The position numbers and the translations under genes were made by a program. The notes under the pieces were generated by a model. That model had not been told where the DNA came from. It searched no databases and was given only the letters and a program-made list of their open reading frames with translations. Positions 3,936 to 53,085 of a stretch of DNA of 54,179 nucleotides are shown here, piece by piece (the first letter of the stretch is position 1; each line of letters begins with the position of its first letter). Source of the DNA: a virus. Its lineage: Duplodnaviria > Caudoviricetes. The DNA is taken from IMG/VR virus record IMGVR_UViG_3300037311_000274, positions 1-54,179 of that record; one strand, given 5' to 3'.

Positions 3936-3945
3936 AGGACAGCCG

Positions 3946-12525: not shown

Positions 12526-12550
12526 AAAGGTCACAATTGTGACCTTTTTT
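12526..12550 (+). terminator. perfect 22-bp palindrome plus T-tract
   Basis: AAAGGTCACAATTGTGACCTTT followed by TTT. Confidence 0.6.
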
Positions 12551-20199: not shown

Positions 20200-21339
20200 A
20201 TGAAATTTGGAAGTTTGTTTAGCGGGATTGGTGGGTTCGATTTGGGGTTTGAACGGGCGGGGATGCAATGCGTATGGCAAAGCGAAATATATCCCCCTGC
20301 GCGTCGACTCCTGAAACGCCATTACCCCAATGTTCAACTGAAAGGGGATATTCAATTTGAACGATTTGAAGCAGTTGACCTTATTTGCAGAGGATTTCCC
20401 TGCCAAGATGTCTCCACTGCCGGACGCCGGGCGGGACTGGTTGGAGAGCGCAGCGGACTTTGGTTCGCGTTCCTTGATGTTTTACAACGCAATAAGCCGG
20501 AGTGGGTTGTTATCGAAAATGTCCCCGGTTTGTTATCCAGCAACGCCGGACGGGACTTTGCCACCATCCTTTACGGGTTGGGGGAATGCGGGTATCGCGT
20601 GGCATGGCGAGTCCTTAACTCTCAATATTTCGGAGTCCCCCAGCGCCGCCGCCGAGTGTTCATTGTTGGGCATCTTGGAGACGGACGCGCCGCAGAAGTA
20701 TTATTTGAGCGCGAAAGCGGCGAGGGGTATTCTCGCCCGCGCCAAGAAACGCAAAAAGACGCTCCCACCGTTATTGGAACACTTCTTGCAAGTGGCGCAG
20801 GTTCAGCCCGCAGCGGCGGCAACCGCAACGAGGTTGACCTGCTTATCCCGACAAACAACGGGATACCGCAAGTTAAATCGTTTAACTGCTTACCCCAAAC
20901 GTTATTCCGCCACAACGATTATGCAAACTATACCGTAGATACCAACTCATCAGCCCTAAGAGCGCAAGCCAGACATCATAGCGATTTGGTTGTGATCGCG
21001 TTAGATTCGCGCAATATGCAATCCAGTCTAATTGTTGGCACATTACACCAGAACCCCCTCAATGTGTATTACAGTCAAGATTTTAATCAAGACCGCATTT
21101 ATTCATCGTCAGGAATTGCCCCGGCGCTTACAGCCAGCGACAGCGCAAAATCACGACGAATATTGACATCGTTTGGGGTGCGGCGGCTAACCCCATTGGA
21201 ATGTGAACGGTTACAGGGTTTCCCTGATGATTGGACTGCTGGCGAGTCGGACACGGCGCGGTATGCCGTGTTGGGCAATGCGGTCACGGTACCGGTAGCA
21301 CAGTGGTTGGGGGAGAGGATTATGGCATGTCGGCATTAG
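20200..21339 (+). CDS. DNA (cytosine-5)-methyltransferase
   Basis: FSGIGG (I), GFPCQ (IV), ENVPG (VI), PQRRRRVF (VIII), RRLTPLECERLQGFP (IX), GNAV (X). Confidence 0.95.
   Translation: MKFGSLFSGIGGFDLGFERAGMQCVWQSEIYPPARRLLKRHYPNVQLKGDIQFERFEAVDLICRGFPCQDVSTAGRRAGLVGERSGLWFAFLDVLQRNKPEWVVIENVPGLLSSNAGRDFATILYGLGECGYRVAWRVLNSQYFGVPQRRRRVFIVGHLGDGRAAEVLFERESGEGYSRPRQETQKDAPTVIGTLLASGAGSARSGGNRNEVDLLIPTNNGIPQVKSFNCLPQTLFRHNDYANYTVDTNSSALRAQARHHSDLVVIALDSRNMQSSLIVGTLHQNPLNVYYSQDFNQDRIYSSSGIAPALTASDSAKSRRILTSFGVRRLTPLECERLQGFPDDWTAGESDTARYAVLGNAVTVPVAQWLGERIMACRH
20357..20938 (+). CDS. overprinted ORF within the C5-MTase, resembling the M.EcoHK31I beta-type polypeptide
   Basis: 193 open codons in the +1 frame; TTG start 8 nt after AAAGGGGA; WGNAGIAWHGESLTLN...ECSLLGILETDAPQKYYLS motif. 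Confidence 0.65.
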   Translation: MNDLKQLTLFAEDFPAKMSPLPDAGRDWLESAADFGSRSLMFYNAISRSGLLSKMSPVCYPATPDGTLPPSFTGWGNAGIAWHGESLTLNISESPSAAAECSLLGILETDAPQKYYLSAKAARGILARAKKRKKTLPPLLEHFLQVAQVQPAAAATATRLTCLSRQTTGYRKLNRLTAYPKRYSATTIMQTIP

Positions 21340-32196: not shown

Positions 32197-33273
32197 CTAT
32201 ACTCCAAAGAGCGATAACTGTTGGGCAGGAGGTTCTTTGTAAGCAGCAATAGCAATAGGCGTGTGCTGATAGGGGTCATATTTGGCAATGCGGCGGCGGG
32301 CAATGGCGGCATAATCGGGGTTGAGTTCGCACCCGACATAATTCATGCCGAGTTGGATAGCCGCCATGGCGGTTGTGCCAGCGCCCATGAACATATCGAG
32401 TACCACGCCATCCGGCGGGCAACTGGATAAGATGCATTGGCGCGGCAGTTGCAGCGGAAAGGTTGCATGATGCTTTTCGCTGGTATTGGCGGTGGACATA
32501 CGCCAAATATTCCGCTGATTGACCGCGGTTGGGACACTGCGGGCAGTGTCATGAGCGCGAGATTTGGCAAGGGATTGAGTCGCCTGACCGGGAACAGCAA
32601 CGTTTTTGTGCTGGTCACTGCGTCCGCGTTTGGCACGGGCAACACTAACCGGAGCAGGCGGCGATGACACAGCGGGCAAATTGTAAAAATATCTCTGTGA
32701 CTTTGTGAACATGAAAATATATTCGTGGGTGCGCGTAGGACGGTCTTTGACGGATTCGGGCAAGCCGTTGGTTTTATCCCAAATGACTTCGGTGCGAAGA
32801 ATCCAATTGTCAGCTTGTAACGCCAGTGCCAATCGCCAGGGGATGCCGATGAGCGTTTTTCGCGGGAATCCGACAATATCCCAACGAATTTGAGTGTGTT
32901 TGACTTGGCTATTTACATAGCAATAGCCATTTTTACCGCCGCCGCCCTTGCCGGAATGGGAGTAGGAATCTCCGATGTTAAGCCAGAATGTCCCGGTGTC
33001 TTTGAGGACACGGCGGGCAAGGCGAAAAATGTTGACCAAGTTATCCACATATTTTTGCACGTCCCCTTCCAGACCGATTTGCCCAGCGATGCCGTAATCG
33101 CGCTGGTTGAAATAGGGCGGGGATGTGACGATGCAATCTACTGAGTTGGATGGCAGACACAGCAGATAATTGGCAGCATCGGCAATGACCACCTGATTCA
33201 GCGGCAGACGTTGGGCGGGCAGGCGTTCAACCGGATATTCCGGCGCGCCGGAATGGGCGGGGATTAGGAGCAT
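32197..33273 (-). CDS. DNA amino-methyltransferase (N4C/N6A, beta class)
   Basis: VTSPPYF, WLNIGDSY, PESVKDR, HHATFP, LDMFMGAGTT. Confidence 0.93.
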   Translation of the reverse strand: MLLIPAHSGAPEYPVERLPAQRLPLNQVVIADAANYLLCLPSNSVDCIVTSPPYFNQRDYGIAGQIGLEGDVQKYVDNLVNIFRLARRVLKDTGTFWLNIGDSYSHSGKGGGGKNGYCYVNSQVKHTQIRWDIVGFPRKTLIGIPWRLALALQADNWILRTEVIWDKTNGLPESVKDRPTRTHEYIFMFTKSQRYFYNLPAVSSPPAPVSVARAKRGRSDQHKNVAVPGQATQSLAKSRAHDTARSVPTAVNQRNIWRMSTANTSEKHHATFPLQLPRQCILSSCPPDGVVLDMFMGAGTTAMAAIQLGMNYVGCELNPDYAAIARRRIAKYDPYQHTPIAIAAYKEPPAQQLSLFGV

Positions 33274-33509
33274 TTTATCTCCTCTATCCAATCGGGGGGA
33301 TTGGTATCGTCATAGGTGATGCGGCATGGTTGCAACCGATTAATAAAATCAGCGGCAGTGATGGTATCCAAACACAGTTTACCGGAGTTCCCACGGGTGG
33401 CTTCGGGCGAATAGCCATAGGCTGTGAACACTGTGATATGGGTGTGGACAGCATTTGTTTGGTCAATACGGACGCTGACAAATAGTTGACGTTCAATCGT
33501 GTTGGGCAT
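33264..33509 (-). CDS. hypothetical protein
   Basis: Fills the gap between DUF5131 and the MTase, coupled at both ends. Confidence 0.55.
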   Translation of the reverse strand: MPNTIERQLFVSVRIDQTNAVHTHITVFTAYGYSPEATRGNSGKLCLDTITAADFINRLQPCRITYDDTNPPDWIEEIKCS

Positions 33510-34882: not shown

Positions 34883-35731
34883 TTAGCGGATAAGGTTTTT
34901 AGTATCTGTAAAGCGAAAGCGAAATGGTTCAAACATATCGCGCCCGTCAAGACGGGTGCGGATGCGCTGGATATACTTTGGCTCTTTTTCGGTGAGCAAA
35001 AAGTAGCGATGCATGACCCACGCGGCTTCGCCCACGGTGCCGCTGCCTGCAAATGGGTCAAAAATCAAGTCATCCTGATAGGAATACAGTTGAATCACGC
35101 GGCGGCATAGTTCCAACGGGAATACGGCACTGTGAACAGAATCGGCTGATGGGGGTATGCGCCAAACATTGGATGTTTCATAATCGCCACAGACCTTGCT
35201 TTGATTCACAATGGCACTGGAATAATGGCGCATGTTCCAATCTAAGAGTTTATCGGTGTGTTTGCGATAGACCATGATATATTCAGTGACGGCATTGGGC
35301 TTGTACGCCAGTGGCTTACGGTGTTGTAAGAAACTGGCATTGCGATTTTTTACGCTGGCTTCGGGTTTGACCCAGATAATATCATCCACAAATTGCCAAC
35401 CGATGTTCACCAGCCGGGCATGTAAATCAAAGGGGATGGCAAACCGCTGACTGGCATGAGCGCGACTGGCACGCGGCATAATGACCGGAGAGGTATTGAC
35501 TACCAAAAACCGACCCTCTTTGGTGACACGGTGGACGCCGTGAAACACGGCGGTCAGAAAGTCCAAATATGCCGCATAGGTTGGGTATTGGGAATACTGC
35601 CGGGCGTTATAATACGGTGGCGATGTAAACGTGAGATGCACCGATTCATCTGGGATGTGGGGCAGCACATCCAGAACATCACTGTGTATCACAAGATTTT
35701 TGAGATTGTCGGGCGAGGCTGTGGGGTTCAT
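34883..35731 (-). CDS. DNA amino-methyltransferase (N4C/N6A, beta class)
   Basis: FTSPPYY, DDIIWVKP, HSAVFP, FDPFAGSGT. Confidence 0.93.
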   Translation of the reverse strand: MNPTASPDNLKNLVIHSDVLDVLPHIPDESVHLTFTSPPYYNARQYSQYPTYAAYLDFLTAVFHGVHRVTKEGRFLVVNTSPVIMPRASRAHASQRFAIPFDLHARLVNIGWQFVDDIIWVKPEASVKNRNASFLQHRKPLAYKPNAVTEYIMVYRKHTDKLLDWNMRHYSSAIVNQSKVCGDYETSNVWRIPPSADSVHSAVFPLELCRRVIQLYSYQDDLIFDPFAGSGTVGEAAWVMHRYFLLTEKEPKYIQRIRTRLDGRDMFEPFRFRFTDTKNLIR

Positions 35732-37248: not shown

Positions 37249-38229
37249 CTACCCCTCCCCTGCTAAAAATTCGGCGGACTCATCCCGCATTCGCCCTTTC
37301 ACCTCAATCCAATGCGTCATTGCGACCAGTCTATCCGTGATGCGCCCTCCCCATGTTTTATACATGGCTTGCTGGCTTAGATTGGTGGTGATAATGGTTG
37401 GTTTCTTGCTTTGGTAGCGGGCATTGATAATGTCTTCCATGACATCCATACGCCCGGACGTATGGTTGTTCATGTCGAACTCATCTATGATGAGCAATGG
37501 AAACTCAGCGATTGCCCGGCGTATGCTGCTGCTGCTGTACTCGCTATCACTGCGATAGCCATCTAAAACAACCTCAAGCATCCGATAGAGGCGGGTCATG
37601 TAGACAGGGATGCCTTGTGCCGTCAGCATATTGTGGATAATACTGGCGACCCATGTTTTGCCAGTCCCCATCTCACCAAAAAAAACAATGCCGGGTTTGC
37701 ATATACCACGCGCTGTAATGCCGTGCGGAAAATTTCCCATATACAGGTTGACAATGTTGGTCAACCGGGCTTGCTGAGGATGGTTCAATAATGAGGTAAA
37801 ATCCGCATTGGCATAGGCGGATGAGTTGCCCAATTGTTGGCGCATTTCGGTGACAATACGCTGTACCCAAATGTCACGATTGCGCTGGACAGCAGCACAA
37901 TTCTCAGGGCAAGGATGCATTTTGCCGAATTGTGGGTCTTCAATTGGCAAATCGTAGCGGACATACCCGGTATCTTCGCAGGTGGTACAGTCCACATGGA
38001 CAACAGTTTCAGCAGAGACGCCACTTGCCAGCAATTCTTCACGTTTTTCTGCCAGTCGTTGCGCCAATGGGGTTTGCCCAATCCGATTCGGGATTGGATT
38101 GTTTTTGCGAAACTCGGCAAGCTGCTGTTCGCGCTCATTGATTTCGCGTCGAATCGCCTTTTGAACTTCAGTCGGCAACTGCGATAAGCGGGTGTTATCT
38201 TCCAGTATTTTTTGATGATTGTTAGCCAT
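37249..38229 (-). CDS. DnaC/IstB-like AAA+ helicase loader
   Basis: CTTCEDTGY...CPENC Zn motif, GEMGTGKT, LLIIDE, IITTNL. Confidence 0.9.
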   Translation of the reverse strand: MANNHQKILEDNTRLSQLPTEVQKAIRREINEREQQLAEFRKNNPIPNRIGQTPLAQRLAEKREELLASGVSAETVVHVDCTTCEDTGYVRYDLPIEDPQFGKMHPCPENCAAVQRNRDIWVQRIVTEMRQQLGNSSAYANADFTSLLNHPQQARLTNIVNLYMGNFPHGITARGICKPGIVFFGEMGTGKTWVASIIHNMLTAQGIPVYMTRLYRMLEVVLDGYRSDSEYSSSSIRRAIAEFPLLIIDEFDMNNHTSGRMDVMEDIINARYQSKKPTIITTNLSQQAMYKTWGGRITDRLVAMTHWIEVKGRMRDESAEFLAGEG

Positions 38230-39199
38230 GCTGCACCGCCATTGCTGCTGTTGCGTCTCGGATAAAATCATCCAGGGTGAATCCGGGCTTCGGCGTGGGT
38301 TTATCTGCTTTTATTTTTTCAGCAGCACGCGACAAACAGGTCTCGATGTATCGCCATGCATATACCTTGGTACCAATCTCTGCCAAATTCGCAAAGACTT
38401 CAAGCACCAATGGGCGACCATATTGCGCCTCATAGGTTTCGAGTTTGACATTAGCCTCTGGCAACAGAGGGTTCATGACTACCCTGAGATAATCCACAAT
38501 CTGTTTGCGTTCACGCCTTTCAAGTTGCTCAGGCGTGATTTCGCCAAAGGGATTATCATCATTAATGATTTCATTTGATTTAATGGCTTTTTCTTCTTTT
38601 AATGTGTCAACAGCCTTGACCGCTGGCGGTAAATCGGGTTGACCGCTAGTGGTTAATACAGTTGACCGATACTGATCAACAGCCTTGACCGCTGCTGGTA
38701 AATCGCCTTGACCGCTGCTGGTCAACACCGTTGACTGCTGCGACTGGTCAACAGCCTTGACCGGACGTTTGGCGCGGGCGGGTTTGATGTTTTCGCGGCG
38801 GGATGTTTTGGCGGTGGCACGACGCTGACGCAGGGCGGCTAAGGGCAAGTCTTCGGGCAAGGGCAAATAATAACGCTGCCCTGTCCGAGCCGGAGCCCCG
38901 ATTTTTTTGAGAATGCCCAACTGATGCAAATTTTCTAGGATGCTCACCAATGTGGGGCGAGACAGCCCGGTACGGTCTTGCCAAGTGGTGAGGCTGATGT
39001 TGGCTTGGCGCGACTCACGATGATTCTTTTGCCCCAAGATAAGGCGGACGGCAGACGATACCACCTTCCATTCATCGCCCGACAACAGGGGCATGATGTC
39101 ATCATACATGGCGTTGGGCGTGGGCGTGGTGTTCTTGAGCCACACCGGAAGGGGGTGTTGGGCAATTTCAGGCTTATTTGGTGTTGTTGAATATGTCAT
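38222..39199 (-). CDS. phage replication initiator (lambda O-like organisation)
   Basis: TPTPNAMYD N-terminus, wHTH (ISLTTWQDRTGLSRPTL), repeat-rich linker, YAWRYIETCL C-domain; lies upstream of the loader. Confidence 0.85.
   Translation of the reverse strand: MTYSTTPNKPEIAQHPLPVWLKNTTPTPNAMYDDIMPLLSGDEWKVVSSAVRLILGQKNHRESRQANISLTTWQDRTGLSRPTLVSILENLHQLGILKKIGAPARTGQRYYLPLPEDLPLAALRQRRATAKTSRRENIKPARAKRPVKAVDQSQQSTVLTSSGQGDLPAAVKAVDQYRSTVLTTSGQPDLPPAVKAVDTLKEEKAIKSNEIINDDNPFGEITPEQLERRERKQIVDYLRVVMNPLLPEANVKLETYEAQYGRPLVLEVFANLAEIGTKVYAWRYIETCLSRAAEKIKADKPTPKPGFTLDDFIRDATAAMAVQHG
38606..38765. repeat. iteron array (probable replication origin) inside the initiator gene
   Basis: TCAACAGCCTTGACCG at 38607, 38676 and 38748 plus several more TTGACC/TG half-sites; AT-rich stretch alongside at ~38560-38605. 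Confidence 0.75.
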
Positions 39200-39216
39200 G
39201 AAATTTCTCCAAATGC

Positions 39217-39350
39217 TTGTATTGCGGCGCAAATTGCGCTACAATGGATGGGTGTGAGAGTAAATAAAATAGCGTCTGCCACACTTTGTCGGTGGGCACT
39301 TCGTTTTGGTTTGGGTGGAGAGCCGCGCTGAAGACGCGGTTTCTTGCTTT
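39217..39350 (+). ncRNA. antisense promoter and ~95-nt countertranscript upstream of rep
   Basis: TTGTAT-17-TACAAT (39217-39245), then hairpin AGCCGCG-CTGAAGA-CGCGGTT followed by TCTTGCTTT. Confidence 0.55.
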
Positions 39351-40847: not shown

Positions 40848-41419
40848 GCTGTCACCTGTGCAGGCAATAGCCCAATCACGGGGGGCGGCGGCAGATGGAT
40901 GATATTTTGAGTAGACTGAGGTTGGCGGGCAGTGCGGCGCATTTCGTAGCGTTGTTGAAGTGTTAATTTATAATTGATATTATGCGTAACTGGTTTTACA
41001 GGAATAATTGAGAAGCATTGTTTGGGTTGCAGAGGTTGGTGATTAATCACCACTGCATCGGCAGGTATGGCGTGCTGCCACCACAATTCGTCTAATTCAT
41101 CCACGCGGACGGTCAAGTTAAACATGACCGATGCGCTGATGATAGGCTTGCCCGGACGCCATGTGGCACGAATTTCATCCGTTTTGACAATTTCCACGCC
41201 CGGCAGCGCAGCGATTTTGCGCTGCCAGTATTTTTTGCCATGCACAGGTTCGCCCATGCCCGGCACATAAAAATCGGCGATGTACTCACCCGTGGCGCGT
41301 TTGCGTTTGACCTGTTCAGGATTGATTCCGGCGCGCCGGAGCGCCTCGCCCACCACGGGTCCTAGGTCAGCGCGGCGGCGGGTTGGTTCAGGATATGGGT
41401 GTTGACCAGTGTCTATCAT
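40844..41419 (-). CDS. hypothetical protein
   Basis: RBS AGGGG; coupled to the next gene. Confidence 0.65.
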   Translation of the reverse strand: MIDTGQHPYPEPTRRRADLGPVVGEALRRAGINPEQVKRKRATGEYIADFYVPGMGEPVHGKKYWQRKIAALPGVEIVKTDEIRATWRPGKPIISASVMFNLTVRVDELDELWWQHAIPADAVVINHQPLQPKQCFSIIPVKPVTHNINYKLTLQQRYEMRRTARQPQSTQNIIHLPPPPVIGLLPAQVTA

Positions 41420-42362: not shown

Positions 42363-43084
42363 TATTCGTCTGAATCCTCATCAAAATTGGCTAATACAAC
42401 GGGATTATCGCCAAACACTTTGACAGTGAGATTGGATAAAGCAATGTTGTATTCACTTTCGCTGCCATCGGGAGGGTTCATGTCCAGCAGCGTTTCCAGA
42501 GCAGCAGGCGTCCCAATTTTTTCGAGAATGAGATAAGTTTGTTTTGATGGAATGTGGAGGGCGCTGTTATCAAATTGAGGAAGGATGGCATCTCCCAGAG
42601 ATGCAAGCGCATCCCAGTCTTTCATCACTGTATAGAACAAAAATTTTTCGTCTGCATGGTGTGGCACGAAATCCATGCTTTTTAAAATACCACCTATAAA
42701 GGCGGCTAAATTGCCACGTCTAGGGGGGACTTTAACGAATGTTTTCCATAGGATATGCATCGCATCTTCTTTGGGCAGATACAACTTCCCCACGAGAGCA
42801 GCCGCCACCTTAAATTCTATATCTCCTGCATCCGTAAGTTCTAGTACGCCATAGGCGTAGAGTTCCACGTCTGGAATTGTTTGGATAGCGGCAAAGGCGG
42901 CGTCGCTGATTTTATCGTCATGGTGGTGGCAAATGTTCGCCAAAGGCTTGAACGCCCCAATTGATTTTAAAATTTGAAGCGCGGCAATCCGCGCAAACAA
43001 TTCATCTGTTTGGGGATAAGAGCGACTTTTAAGACTTTGAAAACGTTTGATTGTCAGACGGCGTAGGTTTTTCATGTCGGTCAT
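42362..43084 (-). CDS. HEAT-repeat-like helical protein
   Basis: RIAALQILKSIG..PL and LEKIGTPAALETL patterns. Confidence 0.55.
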   Translation of the reverse strand: MTDMKNLRRLTIKRFQSLKSRSYPQTDELFARIAALQILKSIGAFKPLANICHHHDDKISDAAFAAIQTIPDVELYAYGVLELTDAGDIEFKVAAALVGKLYLPKEDAMHILWKTFVKVPPRRGNLAAFIGGILKSMDFVPHHADEKFLFYTVMKDWDALASLGDAILPQFDNSALHIPSKQTYLILEKIGTPAALETLLDMNPPDGSESEYNIALSNLTVKVFGDNPVVLANFDEDSDE

Positions 43085-43392
43085 GATGGTTGCCCCCCAT
43101 TGGTCATTTCGATGATGGCGGTTTCTGCTACAACACGATAAAAGGCGTGAGTCGTGTCATCAAAATGAGTGGTGATGGCTGCTTGGGTGTGAATCTGTGT
43201 TAAGGCATCCATGGCGATTTTGACAGTTTGCCCTAAACGCAGGTTTTGAGCGTGTTTTTGCGCCAATTGGTTGCTGAGGCGGGCATTGCGTTCACGCTCT
43301 GTTGCCAGCAATGCTAACAACTGCGTGCGCTCATCGGGTTCGATGATTATTTGTGGCAGTTCATCGGTAATACGTTCTTGCGATTGTTGCAT
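43081..43392 (-). CDS. coiled-coil hypothetical protein, first gene of the leftward operon
   Basis: RBS AAAGGGG. Confidence 0.65.
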   Translation of the reverse strand: MQQSQERITDELPQIIIEPDERTQLLALLATERERNARLSNQLAQKHAQNLRLGQTVKIAMDALTQIHTQAAITTHFDDTTHAFYRVVAETAIIEMTNGGQPS

Positions 43393-43798
43393 CGAAATTT
43401 CCCCTTTCGATTTAATGCTAACGGTTTTTATCTTGTCACGGTGGTAAAATTTATTACATGTACCGGTTTGGGTGCAGGGGGAGACAATCTGTGTCCCCTA
43501 AACCTGTCAGTCGGGGTATTCCCCTCAGAATTGAACCTGACTGATAGTTTTTTCCCCGCATGTTAACGGTACAACTCGGCGGGGTAACGTTTATGCTACC
43601 CTATAATAACGACAGATTGCGTTAGAAAGTATATCGAATATTTAAACCTCCTTTAAATTAATTAATGAAAGATAAACCGCCCATTGTGCCGGATTGTGTC
43701 CGGTTGCCCCCCCCCCGCCCACCTACCCTGCCGATTTCGCGCAGTCCGATGTAACATTTGCATACAGTTTGTATTCACCACACCGCTTTATTGATGTA

Positions 43799-43827
43799 TT
43801 GACTTATATGCTGCAATGCAGTATAAA
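43799..43827 (+). promoter_or_regulatory. sigma70-type promoter with palindrome in the spacer
   Basis: TTGACT-17-TATAAA; CTGCA-A-TGCAG between -35 and -10. Confidence 0.7.
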
Positions 43828-43841
43828 TGAAAGAGGTAATC

Positions 43842-44078
43842 ATGTCAAGTAACAAAAAAGGAGTGGATTTCGTGTCAATCAGGATTGAAAAGGATATGCA
43901 TGAGTGTTTGGCGGCATTAAAACTGCTGAATAACAGCAAGAATTACGATGATGTGCTGTGGACGCTGGCTCGAAAAGCCTACCCCAACATTGATGAAATT
44001 CTTGCTGAGTATCAAAAAATGAAAGCCATGCAAGAAGCCTTTATGAAACGTCTGGGGGGTGACACCCCACAAGAATAA
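43842..44078 (+). CDS. ribbon-helix-helix (CopG/Arc-like) regulator
   Basis: RBS AAGAGGT; VSIRIEKDMHECLAAL...YDDVL pattern; sits at the divergence point. Confidence 0.7.
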   Translation: MSSNKKGVDFVSIRIEKDMHECLAALKLLNNSKNYDDVLWTLARKAYPNIDEILAEYQKMKAMQEAFMKRLGGDTPQE

Positions 44079-44126
44079 TGCTGATTCCTGATATACTGTG
44101 AAAAAACAGTGTAAAGGGAAAACGGC

Positions 44127-45074
44127 ATGTTCAAGCGTGATGTTCGGAATTGGGCGCGGCGGCAGCAGCCGATGGGCGCATGGGGGTGTTTGGTGGGGAT
44201 AGCGGCGCTGGTGGTGCTGCTGATACTGGGGAAAGTGATGGGGCAAGGGGGAACGACAATGATACATCCTGATAACAACCTTATCTTGACTATAGAGAAA
44301 CTTGAAATTTACGGGTCAGCGGGCAATTGGACGCCACAAGCTGGCATGGTGTATGTGGCGCTGCTGGGGCAAGTTGAGAACCAGCGCGGTATCAGGACGT
44401 GCATACAGGCGCGTGAAATCCGGCTTATTTTGGGCGAAACCGAGTATACGCCTATCAATGGGCTTATGGAGCGTTTAAAGCCTGTGGTTGGGCGTGATTA
44501 CTTGAGCGCGTTCAATGGGCAGTGTTTTACGCCAAGGTTTCCAACTGCGACGTTTGCGGCATTTGAGGTGCCGGCAGCGGCATTACAAGGCGATATTCAG
44601 GTGATGTGGTTCGGCATGGTGGCTGAGATTGATTTTTCGTATGGCACGCAGCCGACGCGGACGCCAACGCCCTCACCCACTGCTACGGCAACACCGTCCG
44701 CTGAAGACTTGGTGCGGCAAGTGTTTGACAATTCATGGTTTGCCGGGCGCAAGATTGAATTGCTGGTGGTGAATGAGCAGGTGGTGACGCTGTGGTTTCC
44801 GATGACCAATTTGAGTGCTGGCGCGGTGAAGTATGAAGCGGAAACCCAATTTGCGGTTTTAGCATGTGCTTTACGCACAGCCGGGTTGACGGGGCGAAAA
44901 TACCAATTTCTCGGCACCGTCAAGATGGTGGACGCCGCGGGTCGGGAACGCAGCATGAAGATAGTTGAGGTGATTATCAGTGCGGCAGCCATCCGGCAGA
45001 TGAATTGCGATGCACCACTCATCAACTTGCCCGAACTAGCAGACCGATTTTGGTACCATTCCAGCGTGAGGTGA
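44127..45074 (+). CDS. membrane-anchored surface protein (DUF4352-like Ig domain plus Pro/Thr linker)
   Basis: TM helix, YVAL...VEN...AFEVP strands, TQPTRTPTPSPTATATP linker. Confidence 0.65.
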   Translation: MFKRDVRNWARRQQPMGAWGCLVGIAALVVLLILGKVMGQGGTTMIHPDNNLILTIEKLEIYGSAGNWTPQAGMVYVALLGQVENQRGIRTCIQAREIRLILGETEYTPINGLMERLKPVVGRDYLSAFNGQCFTPRFPTATFAAFEVPAAALQGDIQVMWFGMVAEIDFSYGTQPTRTPTPSPTATATPSAEDLVRQVFDNSWFAGRKIELLVVNEQVVTLWFPMTNLSAGAVKYEAETQFAVLACALRTAGLTGRKYQFLGTVKMVDAAGRERSMKIVEVIISAAAIRQMNCDAPLINLPELADRFWYHSSVR

Positions 45075-45075
45075 T

Positions 45076-45264
45076 ATGGTAACGCCAGAAGAATTTTTTC
45101 GCCGATGGGTTGAGTTGGCACAAGCCGTCCAAAAGGATGTTGACGCTATTTGCCGTGCATTTGGTGGCGATTTGCCACAGCACTTGCCGAAGGAAAAAAA
45201 GCGGCGGACGGTGAAACGTCCGAGATATAAGAAACTGGTCTTCCGGCGGGGACGGTGGCAATGA
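45076..45264 (+). CDS. small basic hypothetical protein
   Basis: RBS GAGGT; coupled to the next gene. Confidence 0.55.
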   Translation: MVTPEEFFRRWVELAQAVQKDVDAICRAFGGDLPQHLPKEKKRRTVKRPRYKKLVFRRGRWQ

Positions 45265-45629
45265 ACGCGGCACTACGGCAGCAATACGAAAATGCTATTC
45301 GGTGTGGTTGGATAAACCCACTCATCCCACATTTTGGAATGGTGAGTGATTATTATACGACTCCCCTGCTGGAACAGCCTGAGATACAAGATATTCGGGC
45401 TGTGACGGTCAAAACGGCGTGGGATGCGTGTGGGGATTGGTGGTGGACTGAGCATTTTCGGCTCAAGATTGTCGGTGGCAGAGTGTTGTATTGGGAAGCG
45501 ACGGCTGCCAAAGGTGGGCAATCGGTGTTGTTGACTCGTCTTGAAGGCGGGGTAACTAACACCGTTGTATATCAGTATCGGCGGTATGTGTATCCGTATA
45601 CGCCGATTGTGCTAATGCGGTATCGGTAA
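45261..45629 (+). CDS. hypothetical protein
   Basis: ATGA overlap with the upstream gene. Confidence 0.55.
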   Translation: MNAALRQQYENAIRCGWINPLIPHFGMVSDYYTTPLLEQPEIQDIRAVTVKTAWDACGDWWWTEHFRLKIVGGRVLYWEATAAKGGQSVLLTRLEGGVTNTVVYQYRRYVYPYTPIVLMRYR

Positions 45630-45670
45630 ATCTATCAATCTAAACCGTGAAGGGGAGAAACAAAAACATC

Positions 45671-46495
45671 ATGACAGTAAAAATAATGGTTGGTGGACGC
45701 AAGGGCGGCACTGGTAAAACCACTGTCGCAAAAAATTTGGCGGCTGGGTGTGCGCGGGCGGGGTTGACTACCCTGCTGGTAGACGCTGACGGGCAAGCCA
45801 ACGCTACATCGGGGATGCAGGTCGCGCCATACGATGGATTCAAGGCGCTGGTTTTGGATGATGCGGATTGGGCGGATTTGTTACGCCCTGTGCCGGAAGA
45901 TTTTGCGGGTGTGCAGGGTATGTTTGTTCTGCCCTCTCATATGGGGCAAAAACAGGTTGAGGAAAACGCGGACAGCATTCCAGCAATTGTAGAACGGTTT
46001 GCCGAACTGGATGGGCAAATTGATGTTGTCATTGTGGACACATCGCCGGGCGCGACGAATGCCCATATCGGTTTATATTATGCCTGCGATTATATTGTGC
46101 TGCCCGTGCAGTGTGTGATGGAAAGCATTTTGTCACTGGATGACATGATGATTTTTCTCGAAAACGCCAAGAAAACAGGGGCGGCGGTGGGGTATCAAAC
46201 CGCTAGTTTTCTGGGCATTGTGCCAAACATGCTCAACGCAAGCACAAATGTTCATAAGACGAATCATGGGTTTATCCAAGGTCAATACTTCCAACGGGTG
46301 ACGGTATTTAGACCGATGCGTGATTTGACTGTTTGGCAGCAAGCCAGTCAGTACCGTACTTCGATTTGGCATTTGGCAGATGTTGGGTCACATCGGGAAC
46401 GGCGTGATGCTAAGATAGCGGGAATGGAACTGCAACCACTGTTGAACGCTGTGCTGAAACTTGCACGGGCTGAAAGTGAACGGGTTGCAGTATGA
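45671..46495 (+). CDS. parA: ParA/Soj family partition ATPase (type Ib, no N-terminal HTH)
   Basis: Deviant Walker A KGGTGKTT, LVDADGQANAT, IVDTSP, LGIVPNM. Confidence 0.93.
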   Translation: MTVKIMVGGRKGGTGKTTVAKNLAAGCARAGLTTLLVDADGQANATSGMQVAPYDGFKALVLDDADWADLLRPVPEDFAGVQGMFVLPSHMGQKQVEENADSIPAIVERFAELDGQIDVVIVDTSPGATNAHIGLYYACDYIVLPVQCVMESILSLDDMMIFLENAKKTGAAVGYQTASFLGIVPNMLNASTNVHKTNHGFIQGQYFQRVTVFRPMRDLTVWQQASQYRTSIWHLADVGSHRERRDAKIAGMELQPLLNAVLKLARAESERVAV

Positions 46496-47301
46496 CCAAG
46501 AAACTGCAAGATGCATTAGAAAAAGCCCGCAATCCGATTAATCCTAATGCCATCTATCCAGAGACTCCCCCGCCGCCGATTCCGCGGCGGCGGGGTGAGA
46601 CTGACCCAGAGCAGTTAAAGGCGTTGCAGGCGCAGATTGAAGCGATGCAAGCGGAATTGAATAACCGTGTGGCATCCAATAATGCCTTAGTGACTGCTAG
46701 TGACGGAAACCGCGTATTAGGGCGATTTCAACTGACACACACGGCATTGATTATCCCTGAAGACATTTCTCAGGATGAAATGAATCTGATGGGCGATTTG
46801 CTGCGGCAGATGTCGGGGGCGATGCAATTCTGGATTGGCGACTATGTGAATATGTATCATGATGGTTGGGGGGAGATGTATGACCGGATGGCGGAATACT
46901 TTGGCATCCCCCAGCAAACGCTTGAAAAATGGGCGTGGGCGTGTCGAAAAATTGAAAAGTTTCGACGCCGAAACTTTTTGTCTTTTTCACATCACGAGTT
47001 GGTGGCGGGGTTGCCCGCCGCTTTGAATGGGCGTGAAGATGAATTGTTAGATTATGCCCAACACAACAATCTGTCGTACCGAGATTTCAGGGTTTATATT
47101 CGTTCTTTGGCACCGGGCAAGATGGTGAAACCCATGCCGAATTTGTTCAATAAAGAATATATGCCCCGCCCCGCTAACTTAAAATCGTTGTATCTGAAAG
47201 CGCGGCAAGGCGACGAAACGGCACTGGCAGAAATCCGGCGGCACATTACCGAGTATCAAAAATGGTTACAGGATATTGAGCAAAGTTTGGGGTTGCGATG
47301 A
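46492..47301 (+). CDS. ParA partner with LmbU-like HTH domain
   Basis: ATGA-coupled to parA; QFWIGDY...Y......G...QTLEKWAWACRK...RRRNFLSFSHHELVA matches the LmbU-family pattern; no ParB GxxRxxA motif. Confidence 0.75.
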   Translation: MTKKLQDALEKARNPINPNAIYPETPPPPIPRRRGETDPEQLKALQAQIEAMQAELNNRVASNNALVTASDGNRVLGRFQLTHTALIIPEDISQDEMNLMGDLLRQMSGAMQFWIGDYVNMYHDGWGEMYDRMAEYFGIPQQTLEKWAWACRKIEKFRRRNFLSFSHHELVAGLPAALNGREDELLDYAQHNNLSYRDFRVYIRSLAPGKMVKPMPNLFNKEYMPRPANLKSLYLKARQGDETALAEIRRHITEYQKWLQDIEQSLGLR

Positions 47302-47732
47302 GTCTAACTCGATTGCCAGTATCGAATTATGTTTATGTCGCACAGAGAGCCGATGATACCACGATTCACAAAATAGGTGTTACGGCTGACCCTATTCGAC
47401 GGTTGAGGGAGTTAGAACGTATGACAGGTGCGCGAATGGCTTATTTGCGTCTAATTCCCCATGATGATGCATTTGCGCTTGAGAATTTGTTGCATCATTT
47501 ATTGGCAGATTATCGGCAAAGCGGCGAGTGGTTTGCATTAGATGATAACATGCTTATCCTACTTATGGCGGTCAACCCAATTGGAAGCCTGTTTGAATTT
47601 GCGATGCAATTTCTCTGGCAGGTGGAGCGAAATATCCACGTTTTGCTACCGGATACAACGCCCGCAGAACGGCAGCAGATGGCGGACGCGCTGGAAGAAA
47701 TGGCGCGGACGATTCGTGAGTACCAGGGATAA
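47298..47732 (+). CDS. GIY-YIG (T5orf172/MUG113-like) domain protein
   Basis: YVYV...KIGVT.DP.RRLREL...E..LH......R..GEWF. Confidence 0.85.
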   Translation: MSLTRLPVSNYVYVAQRADDTTIHKIGVTADPIRRLRELERMTGARMAYLRLIPHDDAFALENLLHHLLADYRQSGEWFALDDNMLILLMAVNPIGSLFEFAMQFLWQVERNIHVLLPDTTPAERQQMADALEEMARTIREYQG

Positions 47733-47744
47733 ATTTGGGATAAC

Positions 47745-47783
47745 TCCCCCTCCCCCACCGAGTAGGGGAGGGGGGATGTGAGG
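47745..47783. repeat. second REP-like GC-rich hairpin
   Basis: TCCCCCTCCCC...GGGGAGGGGG..TGTGAGGG; the reverse strand resembles the element at 42107. Confidence 0.45.
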
Positions 47784-47787
47784 GAAG

Positions 47788-48045
47788 ATGAATCAACTTA
47801 ATTTGATTTTGCCGGAAGATTGCCCGGAATGTGGTACAGCGGTTTTTCCGGGGCATGAGAATTGCCCTGAATGTGGGGCGCGAGTGCTGCGTAAAACAGC
47901 GTTGGTGCTTCGGTTTAAAATTTTGGCTGACGAGTTGCCGAAAGCGATTTATCAATTTCAAGGCGCTCAGGGAAAATTGTTCCAAAGCTGGTGTGATTTT
48001 GCGGCGGCAGTGAATAACGCGCTGAAAGGGGGGATAGATGAATAG
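47788..48045 (+). CDS. double zinc-ribbon protein
   Basis: CPECG...CPECG. Confidence 0.7.
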   Translation: MNQLNLILPEDCPECGTAVFPGHENCPECGARVLRKTALVLRFKILADELPKAIYQFQGAQGKLFQSWCDFAAAVNNALKGGIDE

Positions 48046-48110
48046 CCAAGAAGTAGCAGCACTCAAGATATTGTGATACGAGTGACCGTGAATTAGTTTG
48101 AACTGGCATT

Positions 48111-48144
48111 ATAAAACCCCTCATTTTCGAGGGGTTTTATTTTT
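48111..48144. terminator. bidirectional Rho-independent terminator
   Basis: ATAAAACCCCTC-ATTTTC-GAGGGGTTTTAT followed by TTTT, between convergent operons. Confidence 0.75.
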
Positions 48145-48335
48145 GTCTTTGGGGTGCAAATTGGTGGGGATACCTAAGTTGGTGTGAACATATTCTTTTT
48201 CTCTTATAATATAAATGTCAGTCAGGGATTTTCCGTGCCTACTGCGGGCAGCAAGCGGGTTTCTGGGAATCCGGTTGCCCGACCAGCGTGAACGAACCGG
48301 ATTTTTGCTCATGGATGGCAAAACGGTTGGAAATC

Positions 48336-48356
48336 AAAAAGCGCCCGAAGGCGCTT
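48336..48356 (-). terminator. UUCG-tetraloop terminator; hairpin repeated at 48933-48948
   Basis: Minus strand AAGCGCC-TTCG-GGCGCTTTTT; GCGCCCGAAGGCGCTT occurs twice, flanking ORF 48414-48902. Confidence 0.7.
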
Positions 48357-48413
48357 GACAAATAAGCGTCCTGAGCCTTTTATCGTCATGCTCAGGACGC
48401 TAGGTCAATAGAG

Positions 48414-48902
48414 TTATACGTGAGCTTTGTAAACCCAAAGTTTCCCGTCCCACATCCCGTAGACGCCGTATCCGGCGTTCCAAACAGCCATTCTTAAGAT
48501 GGCGTGGTTGTAATACCAGCCGCGCTCGTCACTCGCTATCGCAGCGTAGTAAAACAACCAGTCGCGTAACAGGCAGTGTCCGAGAGAAACTGTGGTATAA
48601 TGTCCCCCGCGTCCTTTCCAGTTCTTTATTGCCGCCTGAAACTCCTCGTTTGCACGCATGGTTATAGCGTGACGCTCGTACATCGGATAATTGGCGTAGT
48701 TACTTCTGTACGCCCAATACTTGTGAATATCATCTTCTGCGTGCCATGTCATATACGACATGCCACGTTTTTGGATTTCCACAGATATTTCAGCAAGCGA
48801 ACTGAAAACCTGTACGTTCTTGGGGAACGCAAAAGGCAGGTTTTCCATGTACGGCATTTTTAAAAGGTTTATCATCTTCTCACTTACTTTCTGGCGCACC
48901 AT
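48414..48902 (-). CDS. hypothetical protein
   Basis: 162-aa ORF between the repeated hairpins. Confidence 0.6.
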   Translation of the reverse strand: MVRQKVSEKMINLLKMPYMENLPFAFPKNVQVFSSLAEISVEIQKRGMSYMTWHAEDDIHKYWAYRSNYANYPMYERHAITMRANEEFQAAIKNWKGRGGHYTTVSLGHCLLRDWLFYYAAIASDERGWYYNHAILRMAVWNAGYGVYGMWDGKLWVYKAHV

Positions 48903-48946
48903 GCGCCCGTTTTTGGTTAATTTAAATTGGATGCGCCCGAAGGCGC

Positions 48947-49336
48947 TTAAAACACGATGCGGCTACAGCGCCACATCTCATAATCAAAGCCCATCAATTG
49001 GGCAGCTTCGTCCAAGATGGCTTGTAACTGCGGGTCATGCTCTTGCTCATCCCCGTTGTGGTAATTCATCAGGGATTGCAGCACTGTTTCGATTTGATGG
49101 GCTTTTGCCGATGCTTTTGCCGATGCTTCTGCCCGATATTGGGCAAGGTAATTTTTGCCTTCGGGCGAGATGGCAATCACCACCACCTCATTTCCACGGT
49201 CAATTGTGACTGTGTATAAATCGGCGAAATCACCGTAACCATAAAATTCACTCTTATGGTATTTTCCCACTGACATCACAAGGCTTTTATGTTCGATGCT
49301 GAGTAGTAAATTATGTTGTTCTTCGTAGATTTGCAT
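48947..49336 (-). CDS. hypothetical protein
   Basis: ATG right after the recombinase stop; RBS GAGG. Confidence 0.6.
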   Translation of the reverse strand: MQIYEEQHNLLLSIEHKSLVMSVGKYHKSEFYGYGDFADLYTVTIDRGNEVVVIAISPEGKNYLAQYRAEASAKASAKAHQIETVLQSLMNYHNGDEQEHDPQLQAILDEAAQLMGFDYEMWRCSRIVF

Positions 49337-49337
49337 G

Positions 49338-50333
49338 TTATTCCTCACGGTTAAATATGGCGGGCGGGCGGCGCTGCGATGCATCCAGTGTGCCGATGTA
49401 ACGCTGTGTGGTGGCAACACTGGTATGCCCTAAGTTCTGCCGGATTCGTTCCACGTCTAATCCGGCTTCGTAACAGAGACGGGCGTATGTACGGCGTAAG
49501 TCGTGAGGCTGCACCAGCTTGTATTGCCCGGCGATGTTGACCGGGTACTGCTGGAAGATGCGATTCACGCTGCGCGTGGTGATGGCATTGGACAAAATAT
49601 TTTTGTGTCTATCCATGCCCCGAAAAACTGCCCCTGCGGAGATGCCAGCAGCATCTAACCACGATTGAACATCGTTAAGGCACCAATCCATTTCGCCATA
49701 GGGAACTAGGCGCTGTTTGTTGCCCTTGCCGCTTCGGATAAGTAGGGCAAGTTCATCCCCCAAGTGGCAGCGCAGGTCTGTCACATGAAGGGCGCAAAGT
49801 TCGGCTTCGCGGATGCCTGTACATGCCAACAGCGCGAAAATAGCCGTTGCCCGGATGCCAGATAGTGACCCGCATCCGGGCGCAGCGATTAGCTGCTGCA
49901 CCTGATTGGGTTTAAGTCGCAGATGTGCCTCTGCGGTTGTATCCTGCACCACCACCGTTTTAACGGCGCTTCGCTGGGCATTGGTGGCATTGGTTAGGCG
50001 AATTAGCATCTCATCCACCGCCGCCTTTTTTTCCACAAAATCGGCGTCCGGTGGCGTGAGGCTGTAGAGCATATCCCGCAAACCGTTGTCCTGCAAAACG
50101 CGCCTATATTGCCCGCGGATGGTCGCCAGATGTGCGGCAACGCTGGTAGGGGATAGGCGGCGGGCAAGCAGCAAATAATCACGATAGGAGTCTAGTTCCG
50201 GCTGCCACCACGGAATTTTTACCTCCGTGAGCCATGCCTGATAATTTTTCAGGCGCGATTTCACATCTTTGTTGGCAGACACGCCAAATAAGATATGTTG
50301 CGACTGCGGCACGATAGGAATCAGGGTATCCAT
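49338..50333 (-). CDS. tyrosine recombinase (integrase/resolvase)
   Basis: TGIREAEL (R), KGNKQR (K), HDLRR, LGH, TTQRY; no obvious N-terminal arm-binding domain. Confidence 0.95.
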   Translation of the reverse strand: MDTLIPIVPQSQHILFGVSANKDVKSRLKNYQAWLTEVKIPWWQPELDSYRDYLLLARRLSPTSVAAHLATIRGQYRRVLQDNGLRDMLYSLTPPDADFVEKKAAVDEMLIRLTNATNAQRSAVKTVVVQDTTAEAHLRLKPNQVQQLIAAPGCGSLSGIRATAIFALLACTGIREAELCALHVTDLRCHLGDELALLIRSGKGNKQRLVPYGEMDWCLNDVQSWLDAAGISAGAVFRGMDRHKNILSNAITTRSVNRIFQQYPVNIAGQYKLVQPHDLRRTYARLCYEAGLDVERIRQNLGHTSVATTQRYIGTLDASQRRPPAIFNREE

Positions 50334-50334
50334 G

Positions 50335-50703
50335 TTAATCATTCTCCAACGGCAGCGGATTTGCTGGGATGGGGTATGCTCCTGTTCGACGGGCACCGCC
50401 CCAGCCGGGTAAATCCTCTACCCAAAAACATCCATGTTTCTTTAGCTTGGTAGCGATGGCTTGCCGCAAGAAATCTGATTTCCCTTGCGCTTCCAGTACA
50501 AGCGGCTCACCGCCATCAGATGCGGTTTCAAGTTCATCAAGCGTATAACCACGGCGCTGAAGTTCTTCGGCGATGGCAGCCCTCATGAAGCGTTTTACAC
50601 TCATATGTTTTCGGCACGCATCAATCGCGTCAATTTGCGCTTTTGAAAACGACGCAGCTATTTTTACCTTGTTGATAGTCACAGCTATTTGTTTGTTTTT
50701 CAT
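50335..50703 (-). CDS. putative RHH-type DNA-binding protein
   Basis: Two RHH-like helices (SVKRFMRAAIAEEL; KSDFLRQAIATKL) and a WGGAR motif. Confidence 0.55.
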   Translation of the reverse strand: MKNKQIAVTINKVKIAASFSKAQIDAIDACRKHMSVKRFMRAAIAEELQRRGYTLDELETASDGGEPLVLEAQGKSDFLRQAIATKLKKHGCFWVEDLPGWGGARRTGAYPIPANPLPLEND

Positions 50704-52655: not shown

Positions 52656-53085
52656 TTATCTTTTTATCCGGGCGATAACTTGGCGGTGTCCCCCTTTCAC
52701 TTTTTCCCATGCGCCCGCCTTAATCAGCGGAGTTGATAGTTCGGGCAATTCATCCCCGTAAAAGAAGATGAAAATTTTGTTAAGCGCCGCCTTCACCGAA
52801 AACTGTCCATCTAGCGCCACCATGGACTCAATCTGTGCCAGCGTCATCGGCATTAAGTCCGTATGTAAAAGCGTGTATAAATCGGCATCATCATCGGCAT
52901 CATCATCGGCATCATCATCGTCATCATCGTCATCTTCAATGCTTTCAGCAAACCAATAACCGTCCCCAATCTTGATAACATGGACTACGCCGCCAGTGCT
53001 GGCGCGTTCATCAGACTCAAAGACTTCAAACGGGTCTTCTTCTTCTTCTTCGTGATACTGTTTGTGCGATAGTAGTTGTGGTCAT
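52656..53085 (-). CDS. highly acidic protein, frameshifted near its start
   Basis: Frame open from ~53081: QYHEEEEEDPFEVFESDE...IEDDDDDDDADDDADDDADLY. ATG 53085 with RBS AAAGGA is out of frame by +1. Confidence 0.55.

Follow-up and report, generated by a model that had tools for sequence, protein, structure and literature searches.

The 54,179-bp virus record IMGVR_UViG_3300037311_000274 (Duplodnaviria; Caudoviricetes), analyzed here over its full length (the window), carries a gene for a ParA ATPase and, directly downstream, a gene for a 269-amino-acid (aa) protein. The two probably form a type-I module that partitions the genome of a temperate phage and is similar in design to the ParA-ParT pair of the Streptomyces coelicolor plasmid SCP2. 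The partner is very probably the DNA-binding adaptor of ParA; it has no detectable cytidine triphosphatase (CTPase) domain of the kind found in ParB, and its loading site would lie inside its own gene. An earlier, sequence-only reading of this stretch had proposed that an LmbU-type helix-turn-helix (HTH) protein serves here as the adaptor of a new, third type of ParA system that works without cytidine triphosphate (CTP). The part of that proposal that stands is an adaptor without a detectable CTPase domain, tied to parA; the foreign origin of the HTH and the novelty of the type do not. The features of the module are as follows.

45671-46495, plus strand: parA, encoding a small Walker-type ParA ATPase of 274 aa without an N-terminal HTH extension
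46492-47301, plus strand: gene for the ParT-like adaptor, 269 aa, with a ParB-type HTH and no detectable CTPase domain, of an LmbU-like sequence family
46492-46551, plus strand: N-terminal basic peptide of the adaptor, residues 1-20, starting with M-T-K-K (seen in the sequence); putative ParA-activating peptide
46606-46671, plus strand: long coiled-coil-like helix, residues 39-60 (AlphaFold2 model); positional counterpart of ParT helix alpha1
46687-46851, plus strand: long helix 94-120, preceded by three short strands within residues 66-81 (AlphaFold2 model)
46819-47115, plus strand: predicted ParB-type HTH DNA-binding (M) domain, residues 110-208, with recognition helix 141-153
47179-47286, plus strand: C-terminal helical hairpin, residues 230-265, after a linker (AlphaFold2 model); putative dimerization domain
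46955-46978, no strand assigned: candidate parS inside the adaptor gene (codons 155-163), a 24-bp inverted repeat with 10-nt perfect arms and a 4-nt center

ParA and its partner

The product of the upstream gene matches the Pfam families AAA_31 (E value of 1.6e-19), CbiA (3.4e-14), and PF10609 (8.1e-09), as well as PHROG 164, “ParA-like partition protein” (4.4e-28); all NCBIfam equivalog scores are below their respective cut-offs. The deviant Walker A box of the ParA/MinD clade of P-loop ATPases is readable in its translation, and residues K11, G12, G13, and K16 are invariant among 60 homologues. The open reading frame (ORF) spans positions 45647 to 46495 (282 aa) when read from a GTG start, and the ATG at position 45671 gives the 274-aa product. 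There are 73 homologues with E values of ≤1e-10, and those with names include ParA or AAA ATPases of Chloroflexota. The adaptor gene lies directly downstream in the same orientation, and its start overlaps the parA stop by 4 nt. The identity of ParA and the overlap, both stated in the sequence-only reading, are thereby confirmed.

The adaptor itself matches no Pfam family at an E value of ≤0.1 and no PHROG. Its only family match is to the NCBIfam model NF038070, LmbU_fam_TF, over residues 84 to 220, with an E value of 4.5e-17, albeit with a score of 62.5 bits, half of the curated cut-off of 125. An LmbU-like core had been proposed from the letters alone; the motifs quoted in its support are all present in the translation, and the G-x-x-R-x-x-A box, said to be missing, is indeed absent. 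In tblastn searches, the adaptor hits 23 records of actinomycete plasmids, where nearly all of the matches carry the annotation of an LmbU family regulator, and finds no match in the phage collection; a sequence search of the PDB yields nothing meaningful (best E value of 0.23, to sestrin). An exhaustive HMMER search returns 3,815 cluster representatives at E values of ≤1e-3 and 670 at ≤1e-10, and most of the 150 matches listed are proteins of 230 to 290 aa that align over most of the query. In an alignment of 72 family members, R159 is the single invariant residue, accompanied by a few nearly invariant ones.

The AlphaFold2 model built with this alignment (predicted local distance difference test [pLDDT] of 90, predicted template modeling score [pTM] of 0.67) consists, in order, of a helix (residues 3 to 12), an unstructured Pro-rich stretch, the helix 39-60, the strands 66-81, the helix 94-120, a helical body extending to residue 206, a linker, and the C-terminal hairpin 230-265. 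A Lys or Arg residue within positions 2 to 5 is found in 93 of 114 long-form representatives, versus 4 of 13 short forms. In the metagenomic relative P0004, identity to the adaptor is 75% in residues 1 to 55, 28% in residues 56 to 215, and 72% in residues 216 to 269, a mosaic that fits a swap of the DNA-specificity module with retention of the putative ParA-contacting and dimerizing ends. A model of the ParA dimer with two ATP molecules and adaptor residues 1 to 40 (score of 0.01, mark of 0.32) counts neither for nor against binding.

A search of the adaptor model against 48,161 PDB chains places DNA-binding domains of the ParB superfamily at the top, aligned to residues 107/110 to 201/212, with the following scores.

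6s6h_B, Caulobacter ParB: 9.4 (root mean square deviation of 2.8 over 93 residues)
1vz0_A, Thermus Spo0J: 8.8
8qa8_A and 1r71_A, KorB: 7.7 and 7.1
3mkw_B, SopB: 6.3
3vwb_A, VirB: 5.9
1zx4_A, P1 ParB: 5.4

When the 72 relatives are scanned one by one against Pfam, HTH_ParB is found in 14 (best E value of 1.3e-5) and DUF1016_N in 6. Thus, the model and the family matches identify the LmbU-like core, residues 110 to 208, as a predicted ParB-type HTH DNA-binding domain, so that the LmbU-type HTH named in the sequence-only reading is itself of the ParB kind. The relation between the two HTHs is already implicit in print, as Hou et al. (2019) modeled the HTH of LmbU on Thermus and Helicobacter Spo0J (PMC6510168, legend to Fig. 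1). Given the ParB fold matches, the HTH_ParB hits, and this modeling, we therefore regard the adaptor as a truncated type-I HTH ParB rather than a recruited antibiotic regulator.

The part that appears to be missing is the CTPase domain. Pfam detects ParBc neither in the adaptor (E ≤ 0.1) nor in any of the 72 relatives (E ≤ 0.01), and in the model the coiled coil and the HTH domain are only about 50 residues apart. The Spo0J structure includes its N-terminal domain, yet it aligned to the adaptor model through the DNA-binding domain only. The Pfam, motif, and fold searches thus revealed no hidden ParB/Srx motif or domain in the adaptor, in agreement with what had been concluded from the translation.

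To survey the neighborhoods of the family, we fetched 125 loci, comprising one contig of a Chloroflexota metagenome-assembled genome (MAG), 10 and then 35 viral loci, and the best 80 of 244 metagenome matches, and ran the profile of the 72-member alignment and an iterated ParA profile over all their ORFs. The MAG contig had been found with a degenerate DNA pattern (no viral loci, one genome locus). Among the 103 distinct adaptor-family ORFs in these loci, a survey that was seeded by one peptide motif and whose proportions are accordingly not a census, 20 directly follow a ParA gene of the same strand (5 on viral contigs, 14 on metagenome contigs, and 1 on the Chloroflexota MAG), and all 20 encode an N-terminal extension before the domain. 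Between the longest parA and adaptor ORFs, the gap varies from -289 to +12 nt, and ORF calls that extend too far account for the large overlaps. None of the other 83 ORFs has ParA anywhere in its fetched locus, although the upstream coverage is 800 nt or more for 51 of these; the domain starts within 30 residues of the ORF start in 69 of the 83. The linkage to parA is therefore conserved for the long form of the family, and the pair is not a chance juxtaposition, since the arrangement recurs in 20 distinct relatives.

Among 22 of the ORFs without ParA that were scanned against Pfam, 10 are fused to MT-A70, 2 to N6_N4_Mtase, 1 to DUF4326, and 1 to a DruA-like domain. In such methyltransferase and other fusions, from both viral and metagenome loci, the shared domain forms the N-terminus, with neither the basic peptide nor the coiled coil; the loci with short or fused forms include L012, L017, L020, L022 to L025, L029, L032, L042, L044, and L109. 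Five ORFs without ParA appear to have a long N-terminus despite ample upstream sequence. By Pfam, which covered four of them, L023 and L044 are MT-A70 fusions, L083 carries the DruA-like domain, and L123 has no match; the fifth, L071, has a DPPW motif. In all four inspected actinomycete plasmid loci with LmbU regulators, there is no ParA within 4 kb, and the regulators reside amid biosynthetic genes.

These data bear on a different explanation, namely, that the adaptor is an LmbU-like transcription factor that regulates phage genes, including its own operon, through the intragenic site, with ParA being a co-regulator or having nothing to do with segregation. The only named family that it matches is, after all, one of transcription factors, its actinomycete relatives are cluster-situated regulators, its operon begins at a divergent control region of the phage, and short forms of the domain work without ParA. 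We nevertheless consider this improbable: the score to LmbU_fam_TF is half of the cut-off; the long form with the basic N-terminus is linked to parA in 20 of 20 cases and never occurs without ParA in an adequately covered locus, save for the five over-extended or fused ORFs; and translational coupling to ParA is a signature of partition adaptors, for which ParT provides a direct precedent.

A palindrome at an invariant arginine codon

The candidate parS at positions 46955 to 46978 is centered within the codon for the invariant R159, a residue of the loop behind the recognition helix, and is present in a single copy in the 54-kb genome. Perfect inverted repeats with arms of at least 10 nt and a spacer of at most 6 nt occur in only six places in the window, two of them inside the 810-nt adaptor gene (46568-46595 and 46955-46978). 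The former, with 11-nt arms and a 6-nt spacer, consists of Pro (CCG) and Arg (CGG) codons of the adaptor linker, and the linker peptide that it encodes is conserved in P0004.

When the window's own gene is counted together with those of its relatives, 19 of 21 ParA-linked genes contain a perfect palindrome with arms of 8 to 13 nt. In each of the 20 that have arms of at least 7 nt, the palindrome is centered at the identical nucleotide, past the first base of the codon for the invariant Arg; in the adjoining ParA genes, which served as a control, the arms are no longer than 4 to 7 nt. Complementarity averages 10.9 of 12 positions, versus 7.07 after synonymous recoding of the ten surrounding codons and 3.03 at 26,778 control positions, and for 15 of the 21 genes it is matched by no more than 1% of synonymous recodings. 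The 67 family genes with arms of at least 8 nt have 49 distinct 16-mers; the two arms therefore change together, with complementarity kept. The palindrome is absent from this position in all four actinomycete LmbU genes (L001 to L004), although these encode the R-R-R and S-F-x-H-H motifs, so that protein coding alone does not produce it. The phage-borne branches therefore have it as a feature of the DNA itself.

Several comparisons argue that the intragenic palindrome is the candidate cognate site of the domain. LmbU binds a palindromic DNA target, CGCCGGCG (PMC10763038), and the LmbU site TCGCCGGCGA given in the same source is the exact core of several family palindromes. The outer arms of the window site are the same as those of the Streptococcus pneumoniae parS, AGTTTCACGTGAAACT (PMC7022226), plus one extra base pair per half, and the AC|GT center that is common in the family is the center of the canonical parS. 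The parS of SCP2, a perfect 18-bp repeat, occupies codons 143 to 149 of parT, just after the putative recognition helix, a positional match to the window site that was judged by eye. In a scan for mutual information between protein columns and half-site bases, residues 145 and 146 of the recognition helix score highest outside the site codons, which, as the scan was not corrected for phylogeny, is a hint only.

The twin hairpins at 48341 and 48933, each with a T-run after it on the minus strand, we read as terminators of minus-strand genes rather than as part of a centromere. Repeats around the operons of the relatives are heterogeneous and point to no common external centromere. Among the ParA-linked loci, extra palindromes or short repeat arrays are found just outside the operon in L127 (4383-4399 and 4814-4859), L007 (5356-5452), and L008 (2262-2322); these could be further binding sites but share no pattern.

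Comparison with ParT and other partition systems

CTP-independent partition, presented in the sequence-only reading as a new type, is already in print: the ParA-ParT-parS (ParATS) system of SCP2 was described by Sukhoverkov et al. (PNAS 2025, PMC12260392; preprint of 2024, bioRxiv 10.1101/2024.05.08.592561). In ParT, a flexible peptide at the N-terminus is followed by helix alpha1, predicted with low confidence, the long helix alpha2, an M domain superposable on Caulobacter ParB, a linker, and, at the C-terminus, a domain for dimerization; a CTPase fold is missing. The residues S-R-R, the first three of the protein, are required for binding the ParA-ATP-DNA complex and for activation of the ATPase. 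ParT loads at parS, an 18-bp inverted repeat within the parT coding sequence, and diffuses without any nucleoside triphosphate, its accumulation on DNA requiring helix alpha2. The authors found 41 homologues by sequence and 71 by structure, mainly in Actinomycetota and Cyanobacteriota; 45 have a ParA gene nearby, of which 44 are from Actinomycetota (PMC12260392). The main text of that paper names neither LmbU nor Chloroflexota, and its supplementary homologue data sets may include members of the LmbU family.

The window adaptor has the same order of parts as ParT: a basic peptide at the N-terminus, a helix and then a long helix, an HTH M domain of the ParB kind, a linker, and a C-terminal domain. 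A CTPase fold is detected in neither protein, and both genes contain an inverted repeat just behind the codons of the recognition helix. By position, helix 94-120 of the window adaptor would correspond to helix alpha2, the N-gate of ParT. The genes are arranged in the same way: in SCP2 (AL645771), parA (4007-4939) lies directly upstream of parT (SCP2.04c, 3033-4010) and overlaps it, and a recombinase gene is found about 1 kb from parA, just as a tyrosine recombinase gene is found near the pair in the window. The differences are in size (269 versus 325 aa), in the three-strand segment that precedes the long helix in the window adaptor, and in the setting, a phage probably of Chloroflexota versus an actinomycete plasmid. 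ParT has no match to LmbU_fam_TF, which is matched by three members of the window's family. The recombinases (E values of 0.085 to 0.097) and the ParAs (4e-06) of the two systems are only remotely similar, and the two modules are therefore not recent relatives. Judged by its predicted architecture, the adaptor is ParT-like; it is not assignable to the sequence family of ParT.

Canonical type-I HTH ParBs (Spo0J/ParB, KorB, SopB, and P1 ParB) have the same predicted HTH fold as the adaptor and likewise an N-terminal ParA-activating peptide, a C-terminal dimerization region, and a palindromic target (all three putative in the adaptor); they differ in having the ParB/Srx CTPase domain, which is not detected in the adaptor. 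With LmbU regulators, the adaptor shares a homologous DNA-binding core (E value of 4.5e-17 to NF038070), including the R-R-R and S-F-S-H-H motifs. The actinomycete LmbU proteins, however, are cluster-situated regulators with an auto-inhibitory N-terminus (Hou et al. 2019, PMC6510168), in place of which the window adaptor has the basic peptide and the coiled coil; they reside in biosynthetic clusters, and all four examined have neither a ParA gene nearby nor the intragenic palindrome, both of which the window adaptor has. No published link between LmbU and partition was found in the portions of the literature available to us, including passages in which LmbU and ParB co-occur.

A second comparison is with type-Ib systems. 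The ribbon-helix-helix (RHH) adaptors ParG of TP228 and omega of pSM19035 also pair with a small ParA without an N-terminal HTH, act without CTP, and activate the ATPase through a basic N-terminal tail; they are small proteins that bind repeat arrays. The window adaptor, with 269 aa, an HTH core in the model, and a single palindromic candidate site, is not a small RHH protein, as had been recognized from its sequence. Yet it could act in the manner of one, as a partition adaptor that sits statically on one or a few sites, with neither a clamp nor spreading. Consistent with such a mode are the strands 66-81 and the coiled-coil-like helix 39-60, which do not figure in the description of ParT, the lack of sequence similarity between the two proteins, and the fact that sliding is itself assigned by analogy. 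However, the site occurs once in 54 kb, whereas static adaptors normally use repeat arrays, of which there are none near the operon, and the long helix before the HTH (94-120), which ParT requires for accumulation on DNA, is present. We therefore view static binding as unlikely, if somewhat less so than a role in transcription.

In the ParT-like mechanism that we favor, a ParA dimer with bound ATP would attach to the nucleoid, and the adaptor, dimerized through its C-terminal helical hairpin, would bind the 24-bp repeat at 46955-46978 with its ParB-type HTH (recognition helix 141-153). By analogy with ParT of SCP2, a gate at its N-terminus, formed by helix 94-120 and possibly aided by helix 39-60, may then close, and the adaptor may spread over the adjoining DNA with no need for CTP. 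The lysine-rich peptide at its N-terminus would stimulate the ParA ATPase. As an extrachromosomal prophage, the phage genome would then be equipartitioned, with the nearby Xer-like recombinase as a possible resolver of dimers.

The phage setting and the wider family

The record is of the linear class, with a completeness estimate of 91%, and has the layout of a tailed temperate phage, siphovirus-like. The landmarks outside the parA-adaptor pair are listed below.

1718-3935: small and large terminase genes
14738-20092: tape-measure protein, 1,784 aa
47298-47732, plus strand: gene for a MUG113/T5orf172-domain (GIY-YIG-related) protein, overlapping the adaptor stop codon and co-transcribed
48111-48140, plus strand: hairpin followed by a T-run, the likely terminator of the rightward operon 43827-48045
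49338-50396, minus strand: Xer-like tyrosine recombinase (Phage_integrase, 7.4e-22), a possible multimer resolvase or integrase

The parA-adaptor pair resides in the rightward operon 43827-48045, which starts at a divergent intergenic region near 43400-43830. The ORF at 47298-47732 overlaps the adaptor stop in the same way as the adaptor start overlaps the parA stop and is translationally coupled to the adaptor gene, and a zinc-ribbon ORF (47788-48045) follows in the same operon. The replication module is transcribed leftward and includes DnaC-like, O-like, and Sak4-like genes. Within the O-like initiator gene (38222-39232, minus strand), positions 38607 to 38764 contain 3 to 4 copies of a 14- to 16-nt iteron with a spacing of about 70 nt, one of them inverted, which is probably the replication origin of the phage. 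The genome also contains four DNA methyltransferase genes (495-1721, 20200-21339, 32197-33291, and 34883-35731), a 22-bp perfect palindrome (12526-12547) between structural genes that end at 12490 and start at 12549, and a 12-nt unit repeated three times in tandem (52881-52917) near the right end of the record. The named ParA relatives nearest to that of the window are from Phototrophicus methaneseepsis and Anaerolineae, both Chloroflexota, and the sole family locus from a genome, as opposed to viral or metagenome sequences, is the Chloroflexota MAG contig; for these reasons, the host of the phage is probably a member of the Chloroflexota.

For the recombinase, the best models are XerC (3e-26), XerA (1.4e-25), and XerD, with every score below the model cut-off. 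Whether it resolves dimers, as in plasmid prophages, or acts as an integrase is the main uncertainty over the purpose of the module. An integrase would be compatible with roles of the pair other than prophage partition, such as spacing of lytic genomes, incompatibility with or exclusion of related phages, or positioning of some other cargo, with the centromere located elsewhere. One candidate for such a centromere is the perfect GC-rich 16-bp palindrome at 33238-33253, which has near copies at 41326-41341 and 3594-3609 (1 and 2 mismatches, respectively): three copies at up to 2 mismatches compare with 0.31 expected, and 1 of 100 shuffles reached three. All copies lie inside genes. The occurrence of the intragenic palindrome in family genes without ParA would likewise agree with a different role. 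The dispersed 33238-type palindrome, however, has no counterpart in the pattern seen across the family, whereas the intragenic site has precisely the position shared by 20 of the 21 linked genes and lies about where the proven parS of ParT does. We accordingly rank the 33238-type palindrome below the intragenic site and attach little probability to these other roles.

Several observations weigh against the reading of the pair as a ParT-like partition module. Were the tyrosine recombinase an integrase, as is possible, the prophage would integrate and would have no need of a partition system. No repeat array is seen beside the operon (43000-49500). A comparison of the 72-sequence profile with SCP2.04c by hhalign shows no sequence or profile similarity to ParT (probability of 0.3%, E value of 0.2), so that homology with it is a matter of architecture and of the shared ParB-like fold. 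The sampling of the neighborhood survey, noted above, limits what its proportions can say. Taken for the window alone, the palindrome is weak evidence: one mismatch lies at its center, and 9.7% of synonymous recodings do as well as its 11 complementary positions out of 12. Finally, the palindrome is also found in 57 of the 83 short-form genes without ParA, and in 61 of the 62 short-form genes with arms of at least 7 nt, it is centered at the same nucleotide. What the palindrome marks is therefore the DNA-binding domain, not partition in itself.

A further idea is tentative; it is possible, but we hold it with far less confidence than the partition module itself. The LmbU/ParT-like HTH may be a clamp that loads itself onto DNA at a site built into its own gene and centered on one nucleotide of the invariant Arg codon. 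Phages might then put it to two uses: with the basic peptide, it would activate ParA and sustain CTP-free partition, and fused to MT-A70 or N6/N4 methyltransferases, it would load internally and carry the enzyme along phage DNA. The actinomycete LmbU proteins would be a domesticated branch that has lost the internal site.

CTP-independent ParA/ParB-like partition, known from ParATS, has to date been demonstrated in a single actinomycete plasmid, and the ParA-linked relatives of ParT come almost only from Actinomycetota. The window and the 20 related loci display the ParT design in a different sequence family, on phages and in at least one Chloroflexota genome, which suggests that the CTPase-less ParA/adaptor design is broader than reported. 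Relative to the portions of the literature at our disposal, what is new is the LmbU-like sequence family, the phage and probable Chloroflexota setting, and the codon-anchored palindrome, which extends across the family and is common to the methyltransferase fusions. These observations connect three things that have been treated separately, the LmbU antibiotic regulators, the ParT-type adaptors, and the HTH domains of ParB, and they provide a rule for finding the candidate cognate DNA site, namely, a palindrome centered in the invariant Arg codon of the gene. If the domain is indeed a self-loading clamp, its loading site or centromere would be predictable from the gene sequence alone in many members of this family of 3,815 cluster representatives.

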